Shown here one piece after another: positions 4,879 to 44,033 of a stretch of DNA of 55,306 nt. The notes under the pieces are model-generated. The model was not told where the DNA came from. It worked only from the letters and a program-made list of their open reading frames with translations, and did no database searches. This DNA comes from Patescibacteria group bacterium (GTDB lineage Bacteria > Patescibacteriota > Minisyncoccia > Phycocordibacterales > UBA9973). The translations under genes and the position numbers were made by a program. The stretch's first letter is position 1. Each line of letters begins with the position of its first letter. Location: NCBI GenBank assembly GCA_040388575.1, contig JAZKBO010000001.1, positions 74,776 through 130,081 on the forward strand, in the 5' to 3' direction.

Positions 4879-5582
4879 ATATTTTTTATTATACGTTTCG
4901 TATGAGTAGTTTTATCTTCGATCAGTTTTCCGTCTTTTATGTATAAAATTCTGTCAGCGTGTTCGGCTACGTCTTGTTCGTGTGTAATTAAAATTATTGT
5001 GCGCCCCAACTCTTTATTTAATCTTTGAAATGTACCGATAACTATGTCGCCAGTTTTGGAATCCAAATTTCCTGTTGGTTCGTCCGCTAGTATGAGCGAT
5101 GGGTTATTTACCAAGGCTCTAGCGATTGCCACGCGCTGGATCTGTCCGCCGGATATTTGGTTCGATAAATTATGAAAGTGTCCTTCATCTAGGCCTGCGG
5201 AGTGCAGCGCACTCTTGGCACGGGTTTCTCGCTCTTCCATATTCACCCCAGCATATACCAGGGGGAGCATGACATTACGTAATACTGTAGTTCGTGGGAG
5301 TAGATTAAATGACTGAAATACGAAGCCAATTTTATCTCGGCGGATATCAGCCAGCTCATCATCCGAAAGGGTAGAAACATCTTTACCGTCTAGTAGATAG
5401 GTTCCTGAAGTGGGGCTATCGAGCGCCCCCAGCATATGCATCAAGGTCGATTTACCAGAACCAGATGGCCCCATGATTGCTACAAACTCGCCATCAGCAA
5501 CTGTGAAGGAAACACCGTTCAATGCGTTGAATTCCACATCACCAGTCTTGTAAGTTTTTGTAATATTTTTCAGTGTAATCAT
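4875..5582 (-). CDS. ABC transporter ATP-binding protein (MacB/LolD-like)
   Basis: Walker A GPSGSGKST, signature LSGGQIQR, Walker B LILADEPTGNLD. Confidence 0.9.
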   Translation of the reverse strand: MITLKNITKTYKTGDVEFNALNGVSFTVADGEFVAIMGPSGSGKSTLMHMLGALDSPTSGTYLLDGKDVSTLSDDELADIRRDKIGFVFQSFNLLPRTTVLRNVMLPLVYAGVNMEERETRAKSALHSAGLDEGHFHNLSNQISGGQIQRVAIARALVNNPSLILADEPTGNLDSKTGDIVIGTFQRLNKELGRTIILITHEQDVAEHADRILYIKDGKLIEDKTTHTKRIIKNI

Positions 5583-7844: not shown

Positions 7845-10394
7845 TTAGTGTTGGACAGGGGTGATGACTACTGGAGTAGGCGTAGGCTTTTTCATTGCTT
7901 GCTTAGCCAATACAAGGAGTATAAGGATAAGAATAAGTAGCAATAACCAGCCGAATAGGGAATTAGGTAGGAAGCCTGCACCGAAAGCAAATGCTCCAAG
8001 TGTTGAGCCATCAGTGTAAGTGCTGTGTTTAGAATATGCTAGAGCGTCTCCAGTAACACCATTTGGACTGGTGTAGACCATCTGGGCTACGATAACCATC
8101 AAGCCATCATTTTCAATAAGGTTGTCAGTCTTAAACACAAAGGCAAGCTTTCCTTCATCAGCTACTTTTAAGGTGCCGATATCAAATGCCAGAGTGTTCT
8201 CGTCATTCTTGATGTCGCCATCTGTTGCTGCCTGGAAGCTCATGCGTTTTGGTAGTACCACTTGAAGCACTACATCACGTAGAGTCTCACCAGAAATGTT
8301 TTTCCATGCTACCTTACATTCACGACGTTCATTAGCAGTTACGAATTCTGAACCGCAGTCTATGGTAAGCATTACTAGAGAGTTTTCACCTGTTGTGCGA
8401 TTTACAATGGTAGTAGTACGCACTACGTTAGTAGAAGCTCCAGCCACTATGCCAACAGGGGTAACAAAGCTCAAAATATTACCGTTACTTCTCCAATCAG
8501 CATTTTCTGCTACTGCACGGAAGTAGTAAACTCTGCCAGCGTTTAGTCCTGTTATTGTTTGTAGGTTGCGGAATGAATCATTGGTAACATTTACAGCAGC
8601 AGTTCGGTTGCCTAATGCCGTACTGGTACCCCATTCAAACCAAGTGTCGGCATCATCGTTTGTGTCAGAGAGAACAAGTGAATTTAGCTCTGCAGTAGAA
8701 CTAGTGACGCCAGTTGCTGGAGTCGTGGTTGCAGTAATTGAGTTTGAGAAGTTGTCATTATTGCCGTTACCATTGTCCCCAGTTCGGAATGAGAGTACGC
8801 TGCCATTGTCGGTATCTTGATCATTCTCTGCAACTGCACGGAAGTAATAAGTAGTGTTATTGCGTAGGCCTGTTATGCGCTCGTCGAAAGTATCTGTACC
8901 AGAGCCAGTTGATTGATCGCCTGTTTCTTTACTAAGATTATTTCGGTCGGTGCCCCACTCGAACCATGCGCGAGTACCCGAGCCATTGCCATCAACTTCA
9001 CCACGTAGAGTAGCGCTAGTTTGAGTTATGTTGGTAGCACTTTTAGTAGTTACGTCCGGTGCATCACCATTGTTGCTATTGCCGTTGTCATCAGTCCTAA
9101 AGGAAATAATACTTCCTTCATCACTACCTTCATCATTTTCAGCTACAGCTCGGAAATAGTAAGTAGTGTCTCGATCGAGTCCGGAAATATGAGAGTTGAA
9201 AGTGGTTGTGCCTGAGCCAACTGATCGCTGTGATGTAGTTTCATTTAAATCATTTCGATTATCACCCCATTCAAACCAAACATTAGTAGAAGAGCCATTG
9301 CCGTCAACTTGGCCATTTAATGTTGCGCTGGATGTAGAGATGCTTGTTGCACTCTTTGTAGTAACTGTTGGGGCGTCATTACTGTTACCGCCACCGCCAC
9401 TATTGTCTGGGATTTGGCTTACTATATTGGTAATGGTGGTGTTATTGGAGTTGATTACATTATTGTTTGAATTGTTTAAGATATTTGAATCAATAGAGTT
9501 GCTTATAGTATTGTTTGTATTATTTACAACATTAGAGTTACTGATTACAGGAGCAGGAGCTGCCGTAACGCAATCAGAAGAATTGAAGTACTCGTAGTTG
9601 TCGAACAATATACCATCAGCCAAAGCCCAAATTTGGTAAGTATTCCCATTCTTAATTGAAGCTGGAGTGCTCATAGAAAAGGAATGGTTGCTCGAGTTGG
9701 TAGTTGTAGTGCCTACTACACTTACATTACTCATATTTGGAACTCCGTTATATATCGAAACAGTTACTGAAGAAGAAGGGGAGTTAGTGTTATAAACTGA
9801 ACCACTAATAGTAGAACAGCTAACATTGTAATTACCACTCATTGGGTTAGTGTTAGATGGTGCTGAAGCCGGAGTTGGAGTTGGAGTAGGTGTTGGGGTC
9901 GGAGTAGGTGTTGGTGTAGCACAGCTAGGAGTTTTGAAATTCATTAGATCTCCGCGCATGGTACTGCCGTTAGAACTCGCTACTGCTCGCCAGTAGTAAG
10001 TAGTATTTTGACTAAGGCCACTAATAGTTGAGTGGTAGCTAGAATTGGATGTGAAAGTTTGTCTAGATGTAGATAAACCTAAAGAAGAAGTATTGCCCCA
10101 TTCAAACCAAGCACTAACTGTGGCATTTTGGGCAAAAACTGCACCGTAAAGTGTAGCACTGTCGCAGTGGCTAACTACATTTTGGGAATCAGTAGAAGCA
10201 GTCGAAGGAGTAACTGAGGTATCTGGGCTGGTATACATACCCTTAACTGAGTCAGTATAAGTATAATCAGTTGCAGTATCATAGGAGGTGTAAGAAGGAT
10301 CCTTATACTGTGCGTATGAAATATTAAAAGCGCCTGCAAAAAGACCAACGGATATTGCAAGGGCGGACAGAAACATTTTTGTATTCTTATTCAT
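7845..10394 (-). CDS. large surface protein with four Fn3-like WFEWG...YYFRAVA modules, (TP)n linker, Asn-rich tract and C-terminal TM anchor
   Basis: 849 aa: signal peptide, repeated ~100-aa modules, TPTPTPTPTPTPTPTP linker, a CARDB/DUF11-like C-terminal domain, then the hydrophobic anchor WLLLLILILILLVLA. Confidence 0.8.
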   Translation of the reverse strand: MNKNTKMFLSALAISVGLFAGAFNISYAQYKDPSYTSYDTATDYTYTDSVKGMYTSPDTSVTPSTASTDSQNVVSHCDSATLYGAVFAQNATVSAWFEWGNTSSLGLSTSRQTFTSNSSYHSTISGLSQNTTYYWRAVASSNGSTMRGDLMNFKTPSCATPTPTPTPTPTPTPTPASAPSNTNPMSGNYNVSCSTISGSVYNTNSPSSSVTVSIYNGVPNMSNVSVVGTTTTNSSNHSFSMSTPASIKNGNTYQIWALADGILFDNYEYFNSSDCVTAAPAPVISNSNVVNNTNNTISNSIDSNILNNSNNNVINSNNTTITNIVSQIPDNSGGGGNSNDAPTVTTKSATSISTSSATLNGQVDGNGSSTNVWFEWGDNRNDLNETTSQRSVGSGTTTFNSHISGLDRDTTYYFRAVAENDEGSDEGSIISFRTDDNGNSNNGDAPDVTTKSATNITQTSATLRGEVDGNGSGTRAWFEWGTDRNNLSKETGDQSTGSGTDTFDERITGLRNNTTYYFRAVAENDQDTDNGSVLSFRTGDNGNGNNDNFSNSITATTTPATGVTSSTAELNSLVLSDTNDDADTWFEWGTSTALGNRTAAVNVTNDSFRNLQTITGLNAGRVYYFRAVAENADWRSNGNILSFVTPVGIVAGASTNVVRTTTIVNRTTGENSLVMLTIDCGSEFVTANERRECKVAWKNISGETLRDVVLQVVLPKRMSFQAATDGDIKNDENTLAFDIGTLKVADEGKLAFVFKTDNLIENDGLMVIVAQMVYTSPNGVTGDALAYSKHSTYTDGSTLGAFAFGAGFLPNSLFGWLLLLILILILLVLAKQAMKKPTPTPVVITPVQH
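8480..9375 (-). repeat. three tandem ~312-324 nt coding repeats (Fn3-like modules 2-4)
   Basis: The WFEWG-coding 14-mer CCCCA(T/C)TC(A/G)AACCA recurs at 9265, 8953 and 8629. A fourth, more diverged copy is at 10096. Confidence 0.75.
9868..9918 (-). repeat. (Thr-Pro)8 coding microsatellite-like tract
   Basis: GGAGTTGGAGTTGGAGTAGGTGTTGGGGTCGGAGTAGGTGTTGGTGT on the plus strand. Confidence 0.8.
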
Positions 10395-10525
10395 ATTGTG
10401 TGACCTCTTTGCAGAGGTAAATAATTATTAATAAAGTAAAAAATTGACATTCTTTACTCTACGAAATCATCAATACATAATTCATGACTTTGTAGAGTAG
10501 GAAACGTGAGGGGATTGACCCAGCA

Positions 10526-10540
10526 CGTTTCCCGGAAACG
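10526..10540 (-). terminator. palindromic hairpin just downstream of the cassette A ORF
   Basis: CGTTTC-CCG-GAAACG, 11 nt beyond the stop. No T-run, so terminator function is uncertain. Confidence 0.3.
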
Positions 10541-10550
10541 ATGCGAACGC

Positions 10551-11216
10551 TTAGTACCTGATCCAGTTGTGCGTCGCGATGACGCTCACCACCGCAAACG
10601 TACTGTCATGGTCACGAGTGGCCATGATGATCGCAGTGGTGCCGCCGGCGACCGCGCCAGCGATGAGGAAGTTGCGGACCTTGTGCGACTTCGAGGTGGC
10701 GACGGATGGAGTGAAGTCACGGCCATCTTTGCCGTTCTTTCCATCACGACCGTCCTTGCCGTCCTTCCCGTCAATGCCGTCTTTTCCATCCCGGCCGTCA
10801 CGTCCAGCAAGACCAGCAATCATGAGTGGCGCGGGTTTTGGGAACCAGTCAGAGCGTACGGGGTTTCCGCAACCGTAGACCCAGAGGGCCTTTCCCGTTG
10901 CCTTGTCGACCACCACGGGTACGCCAGGGTAGGCGATACAGGTGACGTCCTTGCCGTTGCCAGAACCATAGGTGATCTTCTGATCCGCTGCGTTGATCAC
11001 CAGGGCTTCCGTTTCCGGGTTGATCTGACGGTTCTTGTTCACTGGGTCGGCACCGACATTGCAGCGGTTGATCGAGGCTGCCTGCGCTGCCGGCTTGGTC
11101 TGGTCGAAGCTCACCCCAGCCGTAGCCGAGTCGAACTTGTCGTTGGTTTCCGCCGCCGCCGTCGTGGCGAGGGTCAGGAGCGCGATGGCCACAAGGGCCG
11201 TTAGCATTTTCTTCAT
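10551..11216 (-). CDS. secreted collagen-like repeat protein with C-terminal TM anchor (foreign composition)
   Basis: 221 aa. Sec-type signal MKKMLTALVAIALLTLATTAAA/E, eleven consecutive G-X-Y triplets (GLAGRDGRDGKDGIDGKDGKDGRDGKNGKDGRD), and the hydrophobic segment FLIAGAVAGGTTAIIMA. GGAGG lies 6 nt before the ATG. Confidence 0.75.
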   Translation of the reverse strand: MKKMLTALVAIALLTLATTAAAETNDKFDSATAGVSFDQTKPAAQAASINRCNVGADPVNKNRQINPETEALVINAADQKITYGSGNGKDVTCIAYPGVPVVVDKATGKALWVYGCGNPVRSDWFPKPAPLMIAGLAGRDGRDGKDGIDGKDGKDGRDGKNGKDGRDFTPSVATSKSHKVRNFLIAGAVAGGTTAIIMATRDHDSTFAVVSVIATHNWIRY

Positions 11217-11313
11217 ATGCGGCCTCCTCTAGGCCATGTCAGTGTGCTTTCCCGCCTCTATTGACGAGCAGGGGAGATTGTTGTTACAACCCCACCTGTA
11301 GTTCCTATTTACG

Positions 11314-11341
11314 ATTATAGCAGATTACAAAAAAATGTCAA
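11314..11341 (-). promoter_or_regulatory. near-consensus promoter driving cassette A
   Basis: On the minus strand: TTGACA (11336-11341), 16-nt spacer, TGcTATAAT with the hexamer at 11314-11319. Implies a ~90 nt leader. Confidence 0.55.
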
Positions 11342-11381
11342 GTACCCCGTAGACAAAACAGGGAGGTATGTTTTTGTGATG

Positions 11382-11453
11382 TGCCCTCACCAGGAATCGA
11401 ACCTGGATCGCAAACTCCGCAAGCTCGCATTCTATCCATTAAACTATGAGGGC
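11382..11453 (-). tRNA. tRNA-Arg, anticodon GCG
   Basis: Manual cloverleaf: acceptor GCCCTCA/TGAGGGC, T-arm CCAGG-TTCGATT-CCTGG, anticodon loop TTGCGGA. 4-nt variable loop and no encoded CCA. Confidence 0.7.
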
Positions 11454-11481
11454 AATATTTTATTGTTTTTTTAGATTAGCA

Positions 11482-11946
11482 CTAAAATCCGAGCGAATCA
11501 ATTATTTTCTCAGATGTCGGCTCCTTCATTTCTTCTTCGATAATATTTTTAGAAACAAAAACTTCACGAATTTGCTCAGCTGACTCGGGGTGGATCGGTA
11601 CACTGATGATCGGCATAAAAAATCTACTGGATTTAATAAAAAGCTTAGGATCAATTTCTTTCCGTACCCAGAAGGTGGAAATAGTTTCATAAGGGTAGAG
11701 GTGAGTGCCCATTTTTAATCCCTTTTCATTTAATTCATAAAAAACAGTGTCGGGCTTTTTAATCGCAAAAAATCCAAGGAGTACCCCGCCTAAAATAACT
11801 AAAACGGCAAAAAAATAATTGCTATAAATAATTGAGGTGATGGCCGCCGCAAAGATGATAACACCGAGAGCCCAGAACCAATCATTGCTGCGATCCTTCT
11901 CTTCATATTCGAGCGCGGACCATTGTAGAGTTTGATTGCTATCCAT
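11482..11946 (-). CDS. hypothetical membrane protein (two TM segments plus soluble domain)
   Basis: 154 aa with hydrophobic hairpin WFWALGVIIFAAAITSIIY...FAVLVILGGVLLGFFAI. No family recognised. Confidence 0.6.
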   Translation of the reverse strand: MDSNQTLQWSALEYEEKDRSNDWFWALGVIIFAAAITSIIYSNYFFAVLVILGGVLLGFFAIKKPDTVFYELNEKGLKMGTHLYPYETISTFWVRKEIDPKLFIKSSRFFMPIISVPIHPESAEQIREVFVSKNIIEEEMKEPTSEKIIDSLGF

Positions 11947-11988
11947 ACAATAATTATATCAAATAGACAGTTTAAAACAATTAACTCC

Positions 11989-12016
11989 TTGAATTCTGGC
12001 GATTTCTTGGTATAGT
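11989..12016 (+). promoter_or_regulatory. promoter for tRNA-Ser / ruvX transcript
   Basis: TTGAAT (11989-11994), 16-nt spacer, TATAGT (12011-12016). The tRNA starts 13 nt later. Confidence 0.45.
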
Positions 12017-12028
12017 TTGCATACCAGA

Positions 12029-12113
12029 GGAGGCGTGGCAGAGTGGTCTATCGCACTTGTCTTGAAAACAAGAGTGCCGCAAGGCACCGTGAGTTCGAAT
12101 CTCACCGCCTCCG
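12029..12113 (+). tRNA. tRNA-Ser, anticodon TGA
   Basis: Acceptor GGAGGCG/CGCCTCC, anticodon loop CTTGAAA, long variable arm GTGCCGCAAGGCAC, T-loop TTCGAAT. Confidence 0.85.
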
Positions 12114-12114
12114 C

Positions 12115-12510
12115 ATGAGATTTTTGGGCATTGATTATGGAACAAAGAGGGTAGGCATAGCCATCTCGGACGAGGAAGGTAAGTTAGCCTTTCCAAAAGA
12201 GGTGTTAATGAATGACGATAATGTGCTAACCAAGCTAGGGAAGATTATAGAGAGTGAAAATATAACCGAAATAGTAATCGGGGAATCTACAGATTTGGTA
12301 GGAAAGGATAACAAGGTTGCTAAAGAAATTGAAAATCTAATCAAGGAGCTTACAGTTAAATTTTTCATACCTATCCACAAACAAAAAGAATTTTTTACTT
12401 CAGTGGAGGCCCGCAGGTATGGCAATAGCGATGGTGATGTGCGAAAATCTGTAGATGCATCCGCTGCAGCTTTAATTCTACAAAGATATTTGGATAAGAT
12501 AAATAACTAA
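12115..12510 (+). CDS. ruvX: Holliday junction resolvase-like RuvX (YqgF)
   Basis: MRFLGIDYGTKRVGIA N-terminus. The ORF-track start at 12043 would overlap the tRNA, so it is trimmed to ATG 12115, 1 nt after the tRNA discriminator base. Confidence 0.85.
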   Translation: MRFLGIDYGTKRVGIAISDEEGKLAFPKEVLMNDDNVLTKLGKIIESENITEIVIGESTDLVGKDNKVAKEIENLIKELTVKFFIPIHKQKEFFTSVEARRYGNSDGDVRKSVDASAAALILQRYLDKINN

Positions 12511-16711: not shown

Positions 16712-16795
16712 GCGCGGGTGGCGAAACTGGTAGACGTACTACCTTGAGGTGGTAGCGCTCGCAAGAGCTTGGGAGTTCGAGTCTCCCCCCGCGCA
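16712..16795 (+). tRNA. tRNA-Leu, anticodon GAG
   Basis: Acceptor GCGCGGG/CCCGCGC, anticodon loop TTGAGGT, long variable arm, T-arm GGGAG-TTCGAGT-CTCCC. TGcTATAAT (hexamer 16698-16703) lies just upstream. Confidence 0.85.
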
Positions 16796-16804
16796 CAAGT
16801 TTAG

Positions 16805-16832
16805 TTGATTTTTAAATAAAAAGTGGTATTCT
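16805..16832 (+). promoter_or_regulatory. promoter driving cassette B
   Basis: TTGATT (16805-16810), 16-nt spacer, TGgTATTCT with the hexamer at 16827-16832. Confidence 0.45.
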
Positions 16833-16881
16833 TTTACCGGACACGTCTACGGATAGATAATTCATTTGACGGAGGTACACG

Positions 16882-17091
16882 ATGGACCAGCGTACAAGGA
16901 TAGTCGAAAACCAGTGCGCCAAGCACTACGGCACGGCGATTCTGGCCCGCCCGCCCCACCACATCGAGGAGCCCACCACGGCGCCGAAAAGCGTCGCCAC
17001 GGCGGCTGCGAAGAAGCCGACGACCCTCGAGAAGTTCAGCGGTCCGCCCGACCTTCAGCCGATCTCCAGTTCGGATCCGCGATGGAAGTGA
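16882..17091 (+). CDS. hypothetical 69-aa ORF B1 (may be non-coding)
   Basis: GGAGG (16871-16875) lies 6 nt before the ATG. The product is Pro/Ala-rich with no recognisable fold. High GC makes chance ORFs likely. Confidence 0.3.
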   Translation: MDQRTRIVENQCAKHYGTAILARPPHHIEEPTTAPKSVATAAAKKPTTLEKFSGPPDLQPISSSDPRWK

Positions 17092-17291
17092 AGCAGGCGG
17101 CCGCCAAGCAGCTCAACCTACTCGCCGTCGGGGAGCCATCATCATTCACTCCACCGCGCCGACCCACACCTTCACTCCAGACACTCAATCTGCGGCGGGA
17201 TGTGTGTATCGAGCTCGCCCGGCGACGTCGCCGAGCACAAATTGCGGCCCGACTCGCCCTCAAGCGCGCCGAACGCAACAGTCAGTCGTAG
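17082..17291 (+). CDS. hypothetical 69-aa ORF B2 overlapping B1 by 10 nt (may be non-coding)
   Basis: ATG at 17082 sits inside the end of B1 (..GCGATGGAAGTGA..). Very basic C-terminal helix ELARRRRRAQIAARLALKRAER. No independent SD. Confidence 0.2.
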   Translation: MEVKQAAAKQLNLLAVGEPSSFTPPRRPTPSLQTLNLRRDVCIELARRRRRAQIAARLALKRAERNSQS

Positions 17292-17299
17292 TCATCATC

Positions 17300-17340
17300 G
17301 CGCCGGCCGCGGATCTTTTCCAAAAAAGATCCCCCGGCGC
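17300..17340 (+). terminator. 16-bp GC-rich composite stem-loop closing cassette B
   Basis: GCGCCGG/CCGGCGC outer stem and GGATCTTTT/AAAAGATCC inner stem with loop CCAA. No T-run follows. Confidence 0.45.
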
Positions 17341-17351
17341 GAAAACGTTTA

Positions 17352-17360
17352 TGGTAGAAT
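17352..17360 (+). promoter_or_regulatory. extended -10 element TGgTAGAAT for leaderless msrB
   Basis: The hexamer ends 6 nt before ATG 17367, so the predicted start site coincides with the start codon. Confidence 0.45.
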
Positions 17361-17366
17361 ATAAAT

Positions 17367-17735
17367 ATGACTGAGGAAGAATTTAAACAAAAATTAACGC
17401 CCGAACAGTATAGAGTATTACGCGAGAAGGGGACCGAGATGCCTGGTACTGGCAAATATTTACATGAAAATAAGGACGGCACCTATGAGTGTATGGCGTG
17501 CGGTAATCCGCTTTTTACATCGGATGCTAAATTTGATTCTGGTACCGGCTGGCCATCATTCGATCAGGCAATTCCTGGCGCAGTGGAGGAGCATACCGAT
17601 AATACTTTAGGCATGGAACGTACAGAGATACTTTGCGCTCGGTGTAAATCCCACCTCGGGCATGTATTTAATGATGGACCAACGAAGACAGGCAAGCGCT
17701 ACTGCACTAATTCAGTGTGCTTAGACCTAAAGTAA
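17367..17735 (+). CDS. msrB: peptide-methionine (R)-S-oxide reductase
   Basis: CxxC...CxxC zinc motifs (CMACGNPLF, CARCKSHLGHVF), GTGWPSF, catalytic RYCTNS. Confidence 0.9.
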   Translation: MTEEEFKQKLTPEQYRVLREKGTEMPGTGKYLHENKDGTYECMACGNPLFTSDAKFDSGTGWPSFDQAIPGAVEEHTDNTLGMERTEILCARCKSHLGHVFNDGPTKTGKRYCTNSVCLDLK

Positions 17736-35818: not shown

Positions 35819-37966
35819 ATGGAAAGAGATTACCCTTTAGAAAAAGTTAGAAATTTTGGAATTATCGCCCACATCGATGCGGGTAAAACTACCACGACCG
35901 AGCGTGTGCTTTTTTATACTGGCGTATCCCACAAAATAGGGGAGGTGCATGATGGGGAAACTACTACCGACTGGATGGAGCAGGAGCGCGAGCGCGGCAT
36001 CACTATTACTTCCGCTGCGGTTACCTGCTTCTGGACACCTACATATGATTTGAAAAATAAAGCCCTCAAGCACCGCTTCAACATCATCGATACTCCAGGA
36101 CACATCGACTTTACCGTAGAGGTGAAGCGTTCTCTTCGCGTACTCGATGGAGCAGTAGTAGTGTTCGACGGCGTGGCTGGAGTAGAACCACAATCTGAAA
36201 CAAACTGGCGCTATGCCGACGAGGCTAAAGTTCCACGCGTATGCTTCATCAACAAGCTCGACCGAACTGGTGCATCTTTCGAGCGTTCCTACAGCACAAT
36301 TCTGGAAAGACTCAACAAAAATGCTGTGCGCATGCAGATACCTATCGGATTAGAAGAGAAGTTCGAAGGTGTGGTGGACGTGCTCCGCATGAAGGCCTAC
36401 TACTTTGAAGGCGAGATGGGTAACACAGTTATCGAAAAGGAAATTCCTGCGGAAATGATGGCAGAGGCACAAAAATACCACAATGAGTTGATTGAAAAGA
36501 TTGTGGAGACCGATGACACCTTGATGACCGAGTACCTAGACGGTATGGTGCCCAATTTTGATACTTTAAAGAAAACTCTACGCAAAGCTGTAATTGATAA
36601 TAAAATCTTCCCAGTTTTTGCTGGTTCCGCTTTAAAGAACAAAGGTGTGCAGCTCGTGCTCGATGCGGTGGTAGATTATCTTCCAGCTCCGACTGACATC
36701 CCACCAATAGAAGGTATCAATCCAGATAACGATGAGCCAGCAGTGCGCCATGCCTCCGACGCAGAGCCTTTTGCAGCACTTGCTTTCAAAGTGGCGACGG
36801 ATCCATTCGTAGGGCAGATCATTTTCTTCCGCGTATATTCTGGAAAGCTTGCAGCTGGAAGTTATATTTACAACCCTCGAACTCGCAACAAGGAGCGTAT
36901 CGGCCGAATTCTACGAATGCACGCCAATGACCGTGAAGAAGTGAAGGAAGTCTTCGCTGGGGAAATCGCAGCTGCAGTGGGCCTTAAAGACACCATTACC
37001 TCGGACACTATTTGCGATGAAAATAATCCTATTGAATTAAACCGCATAGTCTTTCCAGAGCCAGTTATCTCACTGCGCATCGAACCTAAGACTAAGGCTG
37101 ACCAAGAAAAAATGGGTATGGCCCTCAACCGCCTTGCGCAAGAAGACCCAACCTTCAAAGTATCTACTGACCAGGAAACAGGGGAGACGATCATTGCCGG
37201 CATGGGAGAGCTTCACCTTGAAATTATTGTGGACCGCATGAAGCGTGAGTTTACGGTGGAAGCTAATGTGGGTAAACCCCAAGTAGCATACCGAGAGACC
37301 ATCAGTGGTGAAGCGGAAGCGGAAGGCAAATACATCAAGCAGTCTGGCGGACGTGGTAACTATGGCCATGTGAAGATCAAAGTTAAGCCGATGGAAGCAC
37401 TGACGAAAGAAGAGATTGAAGACCTACCGAAAAATACCAAGAGGTATTCTGACTTTGAATTCATCAACAATATCAAGGGAGGTGTTATCCCACAAGAATA
37501 CATTGCTCCTTGTGAAAAGGGCTTTAGGGAAGGACTCGATCGCGGAATCCTTGCAGGATTCAAAATGGTAAATGTTTCCGTAGACCTATGGGACGGAAGT
37601 TACCATGAAGTGGACTCCAACGAAATGGCTTTCAAAATTGCATCTTCAATGGCGGTGCAAGATGCCTGCCGATCTGCCCGCCCAGTAATCCTCGAGCCAA
37701 TGATGAAGGTGGAAGTGGTAACTCCAGAGAAGTTCATGGGTGATGTTACCGGCAACCTTTCTTCAAAGCGTGGACTCATCGAAGGTATGGAGGACCGCGG
37801 TATGAATAAAGTCATGCGCGCTATCGTACCGCTCTCTGAAATGTTCGGCTACATGACCGGCCTACGCTCAATGACTGAAGGAAGAGCATCTTTCACTATG
37901 GAATTCCTACGCTACGATACAGTGCCTAACAACGTAGCGGAAACAATCATCGCTGCGAGAAAATAA
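35819..37966 (+). CDS. fusA: elongation factor G
   Basis: 715 aa with [18 protein letters not shown] and all EF-G domains. Confidence 0.95.
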
Positions 37967-38000: not shown

Positions 38001-38045
38001 AGATTTTAGGAACCACTCGATCTTCAAATAAGGAGAAACTCGACG

Positions 38046-38513
38046 ATGAAGAATTTTCGCGCGCTTTTCGAAGCGGAACTCGAAGGGACTGACGGCCAGG
38101 CGACGATCATCGGTGCGAGGGAGCTGTTGCCCACCAAGCACATTGACCCTCGTTTCGAAGCCATCCACAAGTCTGGGCCGGCGACACCGCCGACCAAGAT
38201 CCAGGTACAGGAGCTGGCTGTTAACGGAGAGCTCCTTGACCTTCTCCAAGACGTCTCCGCATTCGATACGCTGCCTTTCATGCAAAGCCAGATCGTCCAG
38301 GTTTGTCATCGGCACCCTGACTGGCTTCAGGCAAACGGAATGCCCAACCTCTTCCTTTGCAAGATGGGGGAGGCCAACTCGGACCTGTTTGTGGTCAGCG
38401 CCTTTCTGGACAACTGGAGCCGCTTCTTCTTCATGAGGCGCGAGCTTCATGAAAGGATTCTCTGGCGCGGGCGGCAGTTTCATCTCCGCTTCTTCTTCAA
38501 GGTGAGGCGATAG
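38046..38513 (+). CDS. hypothetical 155-aa cytoplasmic protein of foreign composition
   Basis: AAGGAG (38030-35) lies 10 nt before the ATG. No TM or signal and no family recognised. The odd Arg/Phe-rich C-terminus could reflect a frameshift. Confidence 0.5.
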   Translation: MKNFRALFEAELEGTDGQATIIGARELLPTKHIDPRFEAIHKSGPATPPTKIQVQELAVNGELLDLLQDVSAFDTLPFMQSQIVQVCHRHPDWLQANGMPNLFLCKMGEANSDLFVVSAFLDNWSRFFFMRRELHERILWRGRQFHLRFFFKVRR

Positions 38514-38526
38514 TCGCCCAAAATTA

Positions 38527-38567
38527 GGAGGGAATCAACCCTCCCATCCCCGGACCAAGGTTCGGGG
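38527..38567 (+). terminator. two tandem GC hairpins closing cassette C
   Basis: GGAGGG-AATCAA-CCCTCC (38527-38544) and CCCCGGAC-CAAG-GTTCGGGG (38548-38567). No clear T-run. Confidence 0.4.
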
Positions 38568-38601
38568 ATTACTCATTATATTCAAAGGTAATTATTCGGG
38601 T

Positions 38602-38794: not shown

Positions 38795-39985
<1,191 letters not shown>

Positions 39986-41762: not shown

Positions 41763-42032
41763 ATGTCTACAATTATTAAAACCCCAAGAATTACCGAAAA
41801 AGCATCCAACCTCCTAGAAGGCCGGGTTTATACTTTTGATATTACGGGGAGCGCCAACAAAAATGAAGTCAAGAAAGCAGTTTTCGAAATTTATAAAGTC
41901 AAACCCGTTAAAGTCAATGTGCTCCGAGTGCCTAAGAAGAATACGATGGTGCGCGGCAAGACCTTTACCCGAGGCGGTGGACGCAAGGCATTTGTATATT
42001 TAAAAGAAGGGGATAAGATCGAGTTCATCTAA
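41763..42032 (+). CDS. rplW: 50S ribosomal protein L23
   Basis: 89 aa with IIKTPRITEKA...KAFVYLKEG. Confidence 0.9.
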   Translation: MSTIIKTPRITEKASNLLEGRVYTFDITGSANKNEVKKAVFEIYKVKPVKVNVLRVPKKNTMVRGKTFTRGGGRKAFVYLKEGDKIEFI

Positions 42033-42871
42033 TGAAAACATACAAACCGACAAGTAAATCCCGAAGACAAATGAGCCACGTTACCTACCGTGGAGTCTTG
42101 ACCAAGACCGAGCCGACAAAGGCGCTCCTTCATGGTTTCCGCCGTATGGTGGGCCGCAACAGTGCAGGCCGCATTACCATGAGGCACAAGGGTGGCGGAC
42201 ACAAGCGCCTCTACCGAGATGTCGACTTTTTATACAACAAGCATGATATCCCAGCTAAAATAACTTCAGTTGAGTACGATCCTAACCGTTCTGCTTTCAT
42301 CGGGCTCGCTATCTATAAAGATGGAGAGAAGAGGTATGTGGTGTTGCCGAAATCTGTAAAGCCAGGGGACTCTTTTATTGTTTCCGAAAAAGCGGAATTA
42401 AATCCTGGAAACAGATTACCACTCAAAAATATTCCAGTAGGAACTTTTGTTTACAATGTGGAGATCAAGCCAAAGGGTGGCGCTAAGATCGGCCGCTCTG
42501 CAGGAATCTTTGCTCAAGTAGTAGCGAATGCGGAAGGTTATACAAACCTGAAGATGCCATCGACTGAAGTGCGCAAAATAAATGAAAATTGCTGGGCGTG
42601 CGTAGGTACAGTTTCAAACGAAGAATATCATTTGCAAAATTTCGGTAAGGCTGGACGATCTCGCTGGAAGGGTATCCGCCCTACAGTACGCGGTACTGCC
42701 ATGAACCCAGTAGACCACCCATACGGTGGAGGTGAAGGCCGCCAAGGCCGAGGCACCAAGCGCCCTAAGACTATGTGGGGTAAAGTTACTGGTGGCAGGA
42801 AGACCCGCACTCCAAAGAAGTACTCAAACATTTTCATCGTTTCTCGAAGGAAGACTGGCAAGAAGGAGTAA
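42032..42871 (+). CDS. rplB: 50S ribosomal protein L2
   Basis: GRITMRHKGGGHKRLYR and RGTAMNPVDHPYGGGEG motifs. Confidence 0.97.
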   Translation: MKTYKPTSKSRRQMSHVTYRGVLTKTEPTKALLHGFRRMVGRNSAGRITMRHKGGGHKRLYRDVDFLYNKHDIPAKITSVEYDPNRSAFIGLAIYKDGEKRYVVLPKSVKPGDSFIVSEKAELNPGNRLPLKNIPVGTFVYNVEIKPKGGAKIGRSAGIFAQVVANAEGYTNLKMPSTEVRKINENCWACVGTVSNEEYHLQNFGKAGRSRWKGIRPTVRGTAMNPVDHPYGGGEGRQGRGTKRPKTMWGKVTGGRKTRTPKKYSNIFIVSRRKTGKKE

Positions 42872-43111: not shown

Positions 43112-43209
43112 TATTCTCAGATCGCAACCCGATCGGAAGGGGGACCGTCACAGAGGCAAGTCTCTATCCACGTTCGGTAAGTTCACAGTCACGTCACTCG
43201 GAGGTTCTC

Positions 43210-43458
43210 ATGCCAAGTCGTTTCAATGGCTGCTCAAGTCGGGATCACGAGGCGCACATGATGAAGGACGCCGCCGCCTTTGGCCGGCGCCCGGATCGTG
43301 TCCGTCATCTGTCGTTGGCGCCCACCACCAGGGTGGTGCCGCGCGAAGCGCCGCTCGTGTCGCTCCGACCGAAGGCTCCGCCGGACGCCGGGCAGGGAAG
43401 CATCAATCTCATGGCCGGGAACAACAGCAGTCGTGCGGCCGTGAGGGGGGTGATCTAA
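43210..43458 (+). CDS. hypothetical 82-aa ORF D2 (may be non-coding)
   Basis: GGAGG (43200-04) lies 5 nt before the ATG. The product is Arg/Pro/Ala-rich without a recognisable fold. Chance ORFs are likely at this GC. Confidence 0.3.
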   Translation: MPSRFNGCSSRDHEAHMMKDAAAFGRRPDRVRHLSLAPTTRVVPREAPLVSLRPKAPPDAGQGSINLMAGNNSSRAAVRGVI

Positions 43459-43523
43459 CTATCTCCCGCAGCGCTAACACCGTTGCGGGTCGCGTTCGAC
43501 CTTGCGTGTTTGCTTCAACATCC

Positions 43524-43542
43524 AGCTAACAACGTGTTAGCT
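43524..43542 (+). other. perfect 8-bp hairpin AGCTAACA-ACG-TGTTAGCT
   Basis: Seen directly. A second hairpin, CCCGCA...TGCGGG, is at 43465-43489. The GCTAACA heptamer occurs in both. Confidence 0.5.
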
Positions 43543-43551
43543 CTCGCCAAC

Positions 43552-43598
43552 CACCCGGTTCTCGACTTTCTGTCGGGACCCGGGTGTGTCTATTTTTA
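43552..43598 (+). terminator. terminator closing cassette D
   Basis: CACCCGG/CCGGGTG outer stem and TCGAC/GTCGG inner stem, followed by TGTCTATTTTTATTT. Confidence 0.6.
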
Positions 43599-43676: not shown

Positions 43677-44033
43677 ATGACCAGATCAATCAAAAAAGGC
43701 ATAAATACAGACGAAAGGCTCCTCAAAAAGATCGCCGGCAAAAACCCGCTCCAGACAGGTATGATCAAGACCTGGAACCGCGCCTGCCAAATCTCCCCAG
43801 AGATGCTTGGTTTTAATTTTGGCGTTTATAATGGTAAGACCCACATCGAAGTCCTCGTAACGGAAGACATGGTAGGGCACCGACTTGGCGAATTTTCACC
43901 AACTAAGAAATTCATTAAGCACGGCGGTAAGATGCAAAAGGAACTTGAACAGAAGAAGAAGGAAGCTGAAATAGCTCAAGCGCAGTCCGCAACAGTAGCC
44001 GCAACTGGCGCCGCTGCAGCTGCCAAAAAATAA
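43677..44033 (+). CDS. rpsS: 30S ribosomal protein S19 with Lys/Glu/Ala-rich C-terminal extension
   Basis: MTRSIKKG...VYNGKTHIEVLVTEDMVGHRLGEF, then a ~30-aa tail. Confidence 0.95.
   Translation: MTRSIKKGINTDERLLKKIAGKNPLQTGMIKTWNRACQISPEMLGFNFGVYNGKTHIEVLVTEDMVGHRLGEFSPTKKFIKHGGKMQKELEQKKKEAEIAQAQSATVAATGAAAAAKK

Follow-up and report, generated by a model that had tools for sequence, protein, structure and literature searches.

A GC-rich gene for a collagen-stalk surface protein beside tRNA-Arg(GCG) in low-GC Patescibacteria is probably an old resident of its locus

The streptococcal surface proteins Scl1 and Scl2 consist of an N-terminal trimerising variable domain, a collagen-like region and a C-terminal anchor, and charged residues replace hydroxyproline in the stabilisation of their helix (PMC8968730). 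Scl1 of serotype M1 contains about 50 triplets, and Bacillus produces collagen-like exosporium proteins with a globular domain, the Bcl proteins (PMC8968730). In Borrelia, the vls surface-protein locus has a guanine-plus-cytosine (GC) content of 49% as opposed to 28.6% for the genome, which the authors read as strong selection on composition (PMC11499132). We analysed a stretch of 55,306 nucleotides (nt), here called the window, from contig JAZKBO010000001.1 of a Patescibacteria group bacterium (assembly GCA_040388575.1). It contains a GC-rich gene for a collagen-like protein (10551-11216, minus strand; positions are those of the window) next to tRNA-Arg(GCG), with 40 nt between the tRNA gene and the -35 box of the promoter. 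Anomalous GC beside a tRNA gene is routinely taken as proof of recent horizontal transfer, and a preliminary description of this DNA had read the gene as a cassette acquired from a high-GC organism at the 3' end of the tRNA. We favour a different view: the gene is probably an ancestral, vertically inherited transcription unit of a low-GC clade of Patescibacteria (Paceibacterota-like), with GC-richness that is maintained, and no recent island.

The relatives of the gene carry this view. We recovered at least nine syntenic loci of related Patescibacteria from independent metagenomes; DNA-pattern scans contributed four loci in addition to those of seven proteins similar to the query. One locus came from a metagenome-assembled genome (MAG) labelled Candidatus Paceibacterota and one (L011) from a MAG labelled Saccharibacteria. 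The gene order pilM, a gene for a tRNA-binding domain, ruvX, tRNA-Ser(UGA), a gene for a 154-residue membrane protein, tRNA-Arg(GCG), the collagen-like gene and the gene for a large Fn3-like protein recurs whole or partly in L001, L002, L004, L005/6/8/14, L007, L009, L010, L011 and L013. L001 and the window also agree in that an RND/ABC/MacB set comes next. A comparison of presence and absence, which had been proposed as a check on the island, returned the collagen-like gene in every syntenic locus recovered; these loci were all retrieved through the gene itself, and empty sites thus lay outside the sampling. RuvX is 57-66% identical to its counterpart in the window, the 154-residue membrane protein 55-58% and the head domain of the collagen-like protein 57-65%. 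The similar identities of the head domain and the flanks suggest that the gene diverged in step with its neighbours.

The composition of the gene is indeed unlike that of its genome. In 100-nt windows across 10500-11249, GC is 0.55-0.68 versus 0.27-0.46 in the flanks. The gene has a GC of 0.60 (0.42 for the genome), a GC at third codon positions (GC3) of 0.73 versus 0.26-0.49 in about 50 native open reading frames (ORFs), and a codon-adaptation-like score of 0.606 versus a native range of 0.709-0.812. Whereas this part of the preliminary description stood, the origin in a high-GC donor did not, as the gene is likewise GC-rich in the relatives. The orthologues have a GC of 0.51-0.64 in backgrounds of 0.29-0.42 and form a sharp islet in every low-GC locus. 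The search for a donor found no informative family member in a readable context with a background above 0.52 GC; the closer relatives are syntenic, belong to a low-GC lineage and show the same GC-rich anomaly. The GC3 values of the collagen-like gene and of its neighbours are as follows.

L001: collagen-like gene 0.60; neighbours 0.20-0.41, three other GC-rich ORFs aside.
L002: collagen-like gene 0.67; neighbours 0.32-0.39.
L004: collagen-like gene 0.49; neighbours 0.19-0.35.
L010: collagen-like gene 0.56; neighbours 0.29-0.34.
L011: collagen-like gene 0.74; neighbours 0.26-0.43.
L013: collagen-like gene 0.69; neighbours 0.19-0.38.
L015 (distant, non-syntenic): collagen-like gene 0.48; neighbours 0.12-0.17.

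The GC3 contrast is nearly gone in L016, from a genome of 0.50 GC (0.64 versus 0.55-0.61), and there is no GC contrast in L017, a LysM-fused variant. The excess is found in the signal-peptide, head and stalk/tail segments alike, not in the collagen part alone. The GC-rich span also takes in both untranslated regions (UTRs) and ends within about 30 nt, at the AT-rich promoter on one side and past the first 3' hairpin on the other.

The same codon is used at conserved identical residues with a frequency of 0.23-0.56 between orthologues, compared with 0.37-0.42 for random draws from the family usage. This near-random agreement indicates that synonymous sites are saturated between the orthologues. 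Since the anomaly is found in syntenic orthologues at synonymous saturation, the rule that links anomalous GC to recent transfer fails here, and something besides recent ancestry keeps the gene GC-rich in genomes of 29-42% GC. Among surface-protein loci whose GC-richness is upheld by selection in an AT-rich genome, vls of Borrelia appears to be the closest earlier case. The resemblance lies in a GC content that is far above that of the genome and conserved across the group; for vls, the excess over an AT-rich genome is about 20 GC points in all species. The two differ in that vls has a coding-strand GC skew of about 0.5, G-runs and arrays of silent cassettes, whereas the collagen-like gene has a skew of -0.007 in the window, and its relatives range from -0.03 to +0.10. 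Neither tblastn nor blastn found a second copy of the gene within the 55-kb window, and the proteins of the two systems have no similarity.

The features of the locus, all on the minus strand, are the following (nt, nucleotides; aa, amino-acid residues).

7845-10394, minus: 849-aa secreted protein with four or five Fn3/PhoD_N-like repeats (Pfam) and a C-terminal membrane anchor.
10452-10501, minus: conserved 20-bp AT-rich RNA hairpin, CACTCTnnAAAGyTATkAA ... TTGATGATTTTnnAGAGTG.
10500-10532, minus: GC-rich hairpin directly past the stop codon, with 14-nt arms that are 86% complementary.
10551-11216, minus: coding sequence of the collagen-stalk surface protein, 221 aa, ATG start.
10617-10670, minus: Gly/Ala-rich hydrophobic segment near the C-terminus (aa 183-200), probably anchoring the protein in the membrane, FLIAGAVAGGTTAIIMAT.
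10716-10814, minus: collagen-like stalk of 11 G-X-Y triplets (aa 135-167), most of them GKD or GRD.
10827-11075, minus: head domain, aa 48-130 (about 80 aa), RCNVGADPV...WVYGCGNP, with three invariant Cys and six beta strands.
11151-11216, minus: signal peptide, aa 1-22, with cleavage at AAA/ET predicted from hydropathy and alignment.
11217-11307, minus: GC-rich 5' UTR of about 91 nt, with a stem-loop at 11269-11298 near its 5' end.
11314-11341, minus: promoter TTGACA, 16 nt, TG-c-TATAAT (extended -10), 12/12 consensus.
11381-11453, minus: tRNA-Arg(GCG), a conserved upstream neighbour and not an integration scar.

That the 221-residue ORF is a real gene, as described earlier, was confirmed. 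A Shine-Dalgarno sequence, GGAGG, stands at 11223-11227 (minus strand), 6 nt ahead of the ATG. The protein starts with MKK and a hydrophobic stretch with a Kyte-Doolittle mean of 2.07 over 19 residues, and its AAA/E site aligns with A-x-A/Q in all homologues, A22 being invariant; the signal peptide proposed before is therefore upheld by both hydropathy and conservation. The proposed Cys-containing N-terminal domain also proved correct, as the only three Cys of the protein (52, 93 and 116) are each invariant across the family. An antisense ORF of 232 residues (10506-11204, plus strand) in the exactly codon-overlapping frame was rejected as a by-product; its frame stays free of stops only because TTA and TCA are absent from the sense codons and CTA occurs just once.

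We could likewise confirm 11 uninterrupted G-X-Y triplets in residues 135-167, GLAGRDGRDGKDGIDGKDGKDGRDGKNGKDGRD (33 residues). The Pfam Collagen model (PF01391) scored 24.1 bits (E 3e-5), below its gathering threshold of 27.2, because the repeat is short and covers 29 of the 60 model positions. The stalk DNA has a 9/18-nt periodic repeat, and the stalk had a predicted local distance difference test (pLDDT) value below 40 in the AlphaFold2 monomer model. The rise of collagen is about 0.29 nm per residue, which would give a rod of about 9-10 nm for 33 residues if a triple helix is formed.

The C-terminal hydrophobic anchor of the preliminary description could be kept in part: a segment is present and AlphaFold2 predicts a helix, but its Kyte-Doolittle mean of 1.49 is borderline. 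The homologues have comparable segments. The membrane topology of the protein would thus be that suggested by hydropathy and alignment. A tail of 21 residues follows segment 183-200. The tails of P0007, P0008, P0126 and P0127 and of the L011 and L013 products contain a Cys-pair motif, V-T-T-D...C...N-x-C-P, of which the window protein has a degenerate remnant without Cys, DSTFAVVSVIATHNWIRY.

The protein has the same order of parts as Scl1/Scl2 (SclA/SclB), including the signal peptide, and contains GKD triplets as they do. The resemblance is in design only. The single NCBIfam match of the protein is to the GKD-rich part of the SclB model, and the NF038329 score is 25.1 bits as compared with a cut-off of 325. 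The protein also differs in having a hydrophobic helix instead of LPXTG, in having only 11 triplets in its stalk, in its unrelated head domain with three conserved Cys, and in its host, an uncultured Patescibacterium. In BclA and in phage tail fibres, short collagen-like spacers bear a globular domain that tops a trimeric fibre. In BclA, however, a C1q-like globular domain is found at the C-terminus and the anchor at the N-terminus. No similarity in sequence or fold to BclA or phage-fibre proteins was found, and there were no matches to phages.

The head domain is, as judged from its sequence and predicted structure, an undescribed extracellular family. A word-indexed profile search with it returned one protein only, and an exhaustive search with a profile hidden Markov model (HMM) was used instead. 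This search found 103 cluster representatives at E <=0.001 among 1.84 billion proteins, most of them 190-330 residues long. The head domain matched neither Pfam nor NCBIfam. Folded alone, it was modelled by AlphaFold2 with six beta strands, a pLDDT of 90.2 and a predicted template modelling (TM) score of 0.79 (pTM). Foldseek against the PDB gave no meaningful match (best E 0.3, TM <=0.32); the beta domain of pVHL was discarded as noise (E about 0.3, TM <=0.25, root-mean-square deviation >11). A sequence search of the PDB returned de novo designs only, with E >0.006.

The whole N-terminal region is common to the query and seven proteins (E 1e-26 to 1e-35), and 32 columns are invariant in an alignment of nine family sequences. 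The N-terminus is hydrophobic in 78 of the 106 family proteins scanned; in 41 of the 53 proteins in which a simple motif locates the domain, the head begins no more than 60 residues from the hydrophobic N-terminus. Among relatives, both stalk and tail are hypervariable. In other members of the family the linker may be Pro-rich or of another kind, and some proteins have an N-terminal LysM-like extension, others an Fn3-like domain. Five contigs carrying P0007 are all identical and showed no polymorphism. We found nothing relevant in the literature on collagen-like proteins or GC-rich surface genes of Patescibacteria.

The consensus promoter with an extended -10 element, as previously described, was confirmed with 12 of 12 consensus positions and the TG; shuffled sequences give 1.1 weaker matches per region. 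The same layout, TTGAC[AT]TTTT...TGnTAnAAT, precedes the orthologue in L001, L002, L004, L005, L009, L010, L011 and L013. It would place the transcription start near 11307. The fold energy of the 5' UTR is -30.4 kcal/mol, with a modest z of -1.85. The leaders of the orthologues are 55-110 nt long, and each has a GC-rich hairpin shortly past the -10 box.

At the other end, a GC-rich hairpin follows the stop codon in every orthologous locus; its sequence varies but the hairpin is constant. In the conserved 20-bp hairpin beyond it, compensatory changes occur in 8 of the 20 pairs and several G-U pairs are invariant. The two 3' hairpins of the window together have a fold energy of -39 kcal/mol (z -6.7). 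A covariance model of the 20-bp hairpin found exactly one copy per syntenic locus, always just past the collagen-like gene, with one copy each in L001, L002, L005, L007, L009, L010, L011 and L013, and no second match within the 55-kb window. The score is about 20 bits better on the sense strand. The single copy per locus and the strand bias argue for an RNA feature of the gene rather than a repeat or a cassette end. The end of a repeated element was excluded on the same count of one copy per locus. No U-tract was detected after the 20-bp hairpin, which is thus not a canonical terminator, and Rfam returned no known RNA family in the UTRs of the gene or in the other GC-rich islets of the window. 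We regard the 20-bp hairpin, which is absent from Rfam, as a candidate new cis-acting RNA element. A stem of 20 bp is about the size of an RNase III substrate.

The 849-residue Fn3-like protein is encoded in tandem on the same strand, 156 nt downstream of the collagen-like gene. The two genes are accordingly not back-to-back, as had been stated for a giant surface-protein gene next to the cassette. The Fn3-like gene has a native composition (GC3 0.34), and its homologue follows the collagen-like gene in L002, L005, L007, L009, L011, L013 and L014. In L001 a gene for 419 residues intervenes, and the sequence of L004 stops short of that position. We found no sigma-70-like promoter in the 156-nt gap. 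As neither a canonical terminator nor a promoter was detected in the gap, the two genes probably form an operon with hairpins between its cistrons. L011 departs from this pattern, since its downstream gene has its own promoters past the hairpin. The family protein P0139 fuses the head domain to the repeat type of the 849-residue neighbour (37% identity, E 9e-14), which supports a functional link between the two genes.

Intercistronic stem-loops stabilise the upstream part of the operon transcript in Rhodobacter puf and in E. coli malE-malF. The collagen-like locus may be comparable with these, as its hairpins are stable, lack a U-tract and lie between the cistrons of a large downstream product and of an upstream one that is small and presumably abundant. 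It differs from them in that the downstream gene of L011 has its own promoters and in that a different gene follows in L001.

From these features the working of the locus can be outlined. Transcription would start from the consensus extended -10 promoter and yield a transcript with a 5' stem-loop, which would end in, or read through, the GC-rich hairpin and then the conserved 20-bp hairpin. The upstream cistron could be stabilised by these hairpins, which may also determine in what ratio the two proteins are made. After removal of the signal peptide, the head would be held off the cell by the short, highly charged collagen-like segment, and the chain would be tethered via the C-terminal hydrophobic helix as a type-I surface protein. 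Trimerisation, as in the Scl proteins of Streptococcus, may produce a surface fibril that presents three head domains. The fibril might act jointly with the downstream Fn3-like repeat protein, most plausibly in cell-cell or host attachment. A role of the collagen-like protein as an adhesin is a reasonable inference from its domain layout.

Selection, or some biased process at the level of the DNA or transcript, would keep up the GC-richness against the genomic mutational bias. The sharp overlap of the GC-rich span with the transcript, together with the strong promoter and the hairpins at both ends, suggests selection on the mRNA for stability or abundance. We put forward only tentatively that the GC-richness is an actively maintained functional property, serving either a stable or structured mRNA or recombination and diversification at a surface-protein locus. 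Other causes were considered and rejected. Translational selection does not fit, because the genes for EF-Tu, EF-G and eight ribosomal proteins have a GC3 of 0.43 (EF-Tu alone 0.36), a C/(C+T) of 0.47 and a G/(G+A) of 0.37, with no preference of G over A, as opposed to 0.73, 0.74 and 0.71 in the collagen-like gene. Amino-acid composition was dismissed as well, as the Fn3-like neighbour has a similar GC at second codon positions (0.50) and yet a GC3 of 0.34. The idea that tRNA-Arg(GCG) supplies rare CGC/CGU codons was also rejected; CGC and CGT already make up 52% of the native Arg codons.

The window has three more GC-rich islets. The first, 38026-38575 (0.56 GC), lies between fusA (35819-37966) and tuf (38795-39985) and contains a TTGACT...TGcATAAT-like promoter, an ORF of 155 residues (38046-38513, GC3 0.73) and 3' hairpins. 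The product of this ORF found no homologue but itself among 5.8 billion protein clusters and no Pfam match. The second, 43126-43575 (0.62 GC), between rplB (42032-42871) and rpsS (43677-44033), is located inside the normally uninterrupted S10 operon; a hairpin followed by T's marks its end, and it shows neither a convincing ORF nor an Rfam match. The third, 16826-17375 (0.60 GC), starts about 30 nt past the 3' end of tRNA-Leu(GAG) (16712-16796), contains competing ORFs of 69 (ATG) and 141 residues (TTG) with no Pfam match, and ends in a strong hairpin at about 17296-17340; the islet has no Rfam match. Two of the four islets are located directly downstream of G34 tRNA genes (11381-11453 and 16712-16796); these tRNAs, Arg(GCG) and Leu(GAG), serve four-codon boxes in the genome. 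No homology was found among the four islets, or to the fetched loci, by tblastx or blastn. Further GC-rich genes surround the copy in L001 (4750-6096 and 8576-9871), encoding two PEP-CTERM-type proteins (GC3 up to 0.73) and a 419-residue acidic repetitive protein (GC3 0.61). GC-rich islets thus seem to recur in these genomes.

Several observations weigh against vertical inheritance with maintained GC-richness, or against parts of the proposed function. The phylogeny of the loci is star-like, so that vertical inheritance rests on similar levels of divergence and not on a resolved tree, and the correlation between flank and head-domain identity is only 0.37 without L011. The head domain of L011 is far more diverged (31%) than its flanks (57-64%), which indicates that replacement at the locus does sometimes happen. 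One of the three additional islets was searched and proved to be an orphan without a homologue, suggesting that foreign GC-rich DNA may enter these genomes. To our knowledge, no mechanism holds one gene 20-35 GC3 points above its genome without a GC skew of the vls type, and among the RNA runs searched for the window sequence none contains it. On the protein side, at least four G-X-Y triplets occur in only 14 of the 106 family proteins scanned, implying that the stalk is replaceable and may be a spacer only, and a run of 11 triplets lacking hydroxyproline is short if a stable triple helix is to form. As a membrane helix, the hydrophobic segment is borderline (1.49), and the Cys-pair motif past it in several orthologues is odd for a cytoplasmic tail and casts doubt on the membrane side of the tail.

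In L011 (7878-8693), the head domain is 25-34% identical to the other copies, as compared with 57-64% for the flanking membrane protein. Either fast evolution or replacement by a distant family member could account for this.

The main rival to the favoured reading is the serial replacement of alleles, in which the stretch between the conserved promoter and the conserved 3' hairpin would be a hot spot where GC-rich alleles of an unsampled pool are swapped in time and again by homologous recombination after DNA uptake; every genome would then carry a GC-rich import of fairly recent date. In favour of such swapping, conserved AT-rich sequences adjoin the GC-rich stretch at both of its sharp edges, hypervariability marks the stalk and tail, and the content just downstream of tRNA-Arg is variable. 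The much greater divergence of the L011 copy than of its flanks, the other GC-rich orphan islets in the window and in L001, and the type IV pilus genes adjoining the locus point in the same direction. We nevertheless consider serial replacement unlikely. Searches of 15 billion proteins and of three collections of mobile elements placed no family member in a GC-rich genome, a phage or a plasmid, and the head domains, L011 aside, have diverged as much as the flanks. Moreover, the conserved arms of about 30-50 nt with 65-90% identity would be a poor substrate for homologous recombination at such divergence.

If the ancestor of the clade had once, long ago, received the gene from a very GC-rich donor and amelioration were still incomplete, this would explain an anomaly at one locus that is common to all descendants. 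The GC of the gene also loosely tracks that of the host (0.53 in 0.29, 0.60 in 0.42 and 0.63 in 0.50), as expected of partial amelioration. We judge this explanation improbable, since synonymous sites are already saturated and the flanking proteins are only 55-65% identical. Standard amelioration models would imply that the excess should have been nearly erased over such divergence, but a GC3 excess of 0.25-0.45 persists. The distant, non-syntenic L015 shows the same excess.

The reading of a recent island, taken up by this genome from a high-GC organism and integrated beside tRNA-Arg at its 3' end, is very improbable. The locus does share anomalous composition and codon usage beside a tRNA gene with tRNA-linked islands, and the 40-nt spacing past the tRNA 3' end given in the preliminary description is correct. 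Against an insertion at this end stand the synteny with the same anomaly in at least nine related genomes and a promoter type that matches all orthologues. The adjacency to the tRNA is not constant either: L005/L014 have a gene of native composition for 169 residues between tRNA-Arg(GCG) and the collagen-like gene, and the intervening gene of L010 encodes 551 residues. In L004 only (5366-5438), tRNA-Arg(GCG) is inverted relative to the flanking genes, as confirmed by tRNA alignment. The suggested tRNA-Arg repeat at the far edge, hence an att repeat, was absent, as the best local alignment scored 15 versus a shuffled mean of 17.7. No integrase or mobility gene was found among the ORFs of 7845-12510, which encode the Fn3-like protein, the collagen-like protein, the small membrane protein and RuvX only. 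An origin in a mobile element was rejected, as the family had no match in IMG/VR, GenBank phages or PLSDB plasmids. The gene is also unlike an integron cassette in having its own promoter and a single 3' hairpin and in forming no array; there was no intI among the ORFs examined, and attC core sites were not formally modelled.

An assembly chimera joining a high-GC fragment into a low-GC contig, as sharp compositional edges in metagenome-derived sequence might suggest, can be dismissed as practically negligible, because the same arrangement occurs in many unrelated assemblies and independent contigs span both junctions, at about 10505 and 11300: a Logan contig of run X1 covers 9901-11409 with no mismatch and a depth of 8.6 versus 8.68 for the adjoining contig, a contig from a second watershed sample (run X2) spans 10350-10704 and hence the edge at 10505, and soil metagenomes of other studies (runs X3 and X4) contain identical pieces.

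The contig of run X1 has 18 extra nt within 9901-10560, in or near the (PT)n run (about 9850-9920) of the 849-residue gene. The Pro-Thr repeat of the Fn3-like surface protein may vary in length here. A variable number of collagen repeats was discarded as the cause, as the difference falls in or near the repeat of the neighbour and the collagen-like gene is identical.

If the GC-richness is indeed maintained, a class of surface-protein genes would be kept 20-35 GC3 points above the genomes of Patescibacteria over deep time, providing a second and mechanistically different case beside vls of Borrelia. Compositional islets in these genomes could then not be read as scars of transfer. The collagen-like protein also introduces an undescribed head domain with a confidently predicted fold, no match in the PDB and a pairing with an Fn3-like repeat protein. 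In this group of uncultured and probably host-dependent bacteria, little is known of the machinery of attachment, and the gene pair is a candidate for a surface apparatus.

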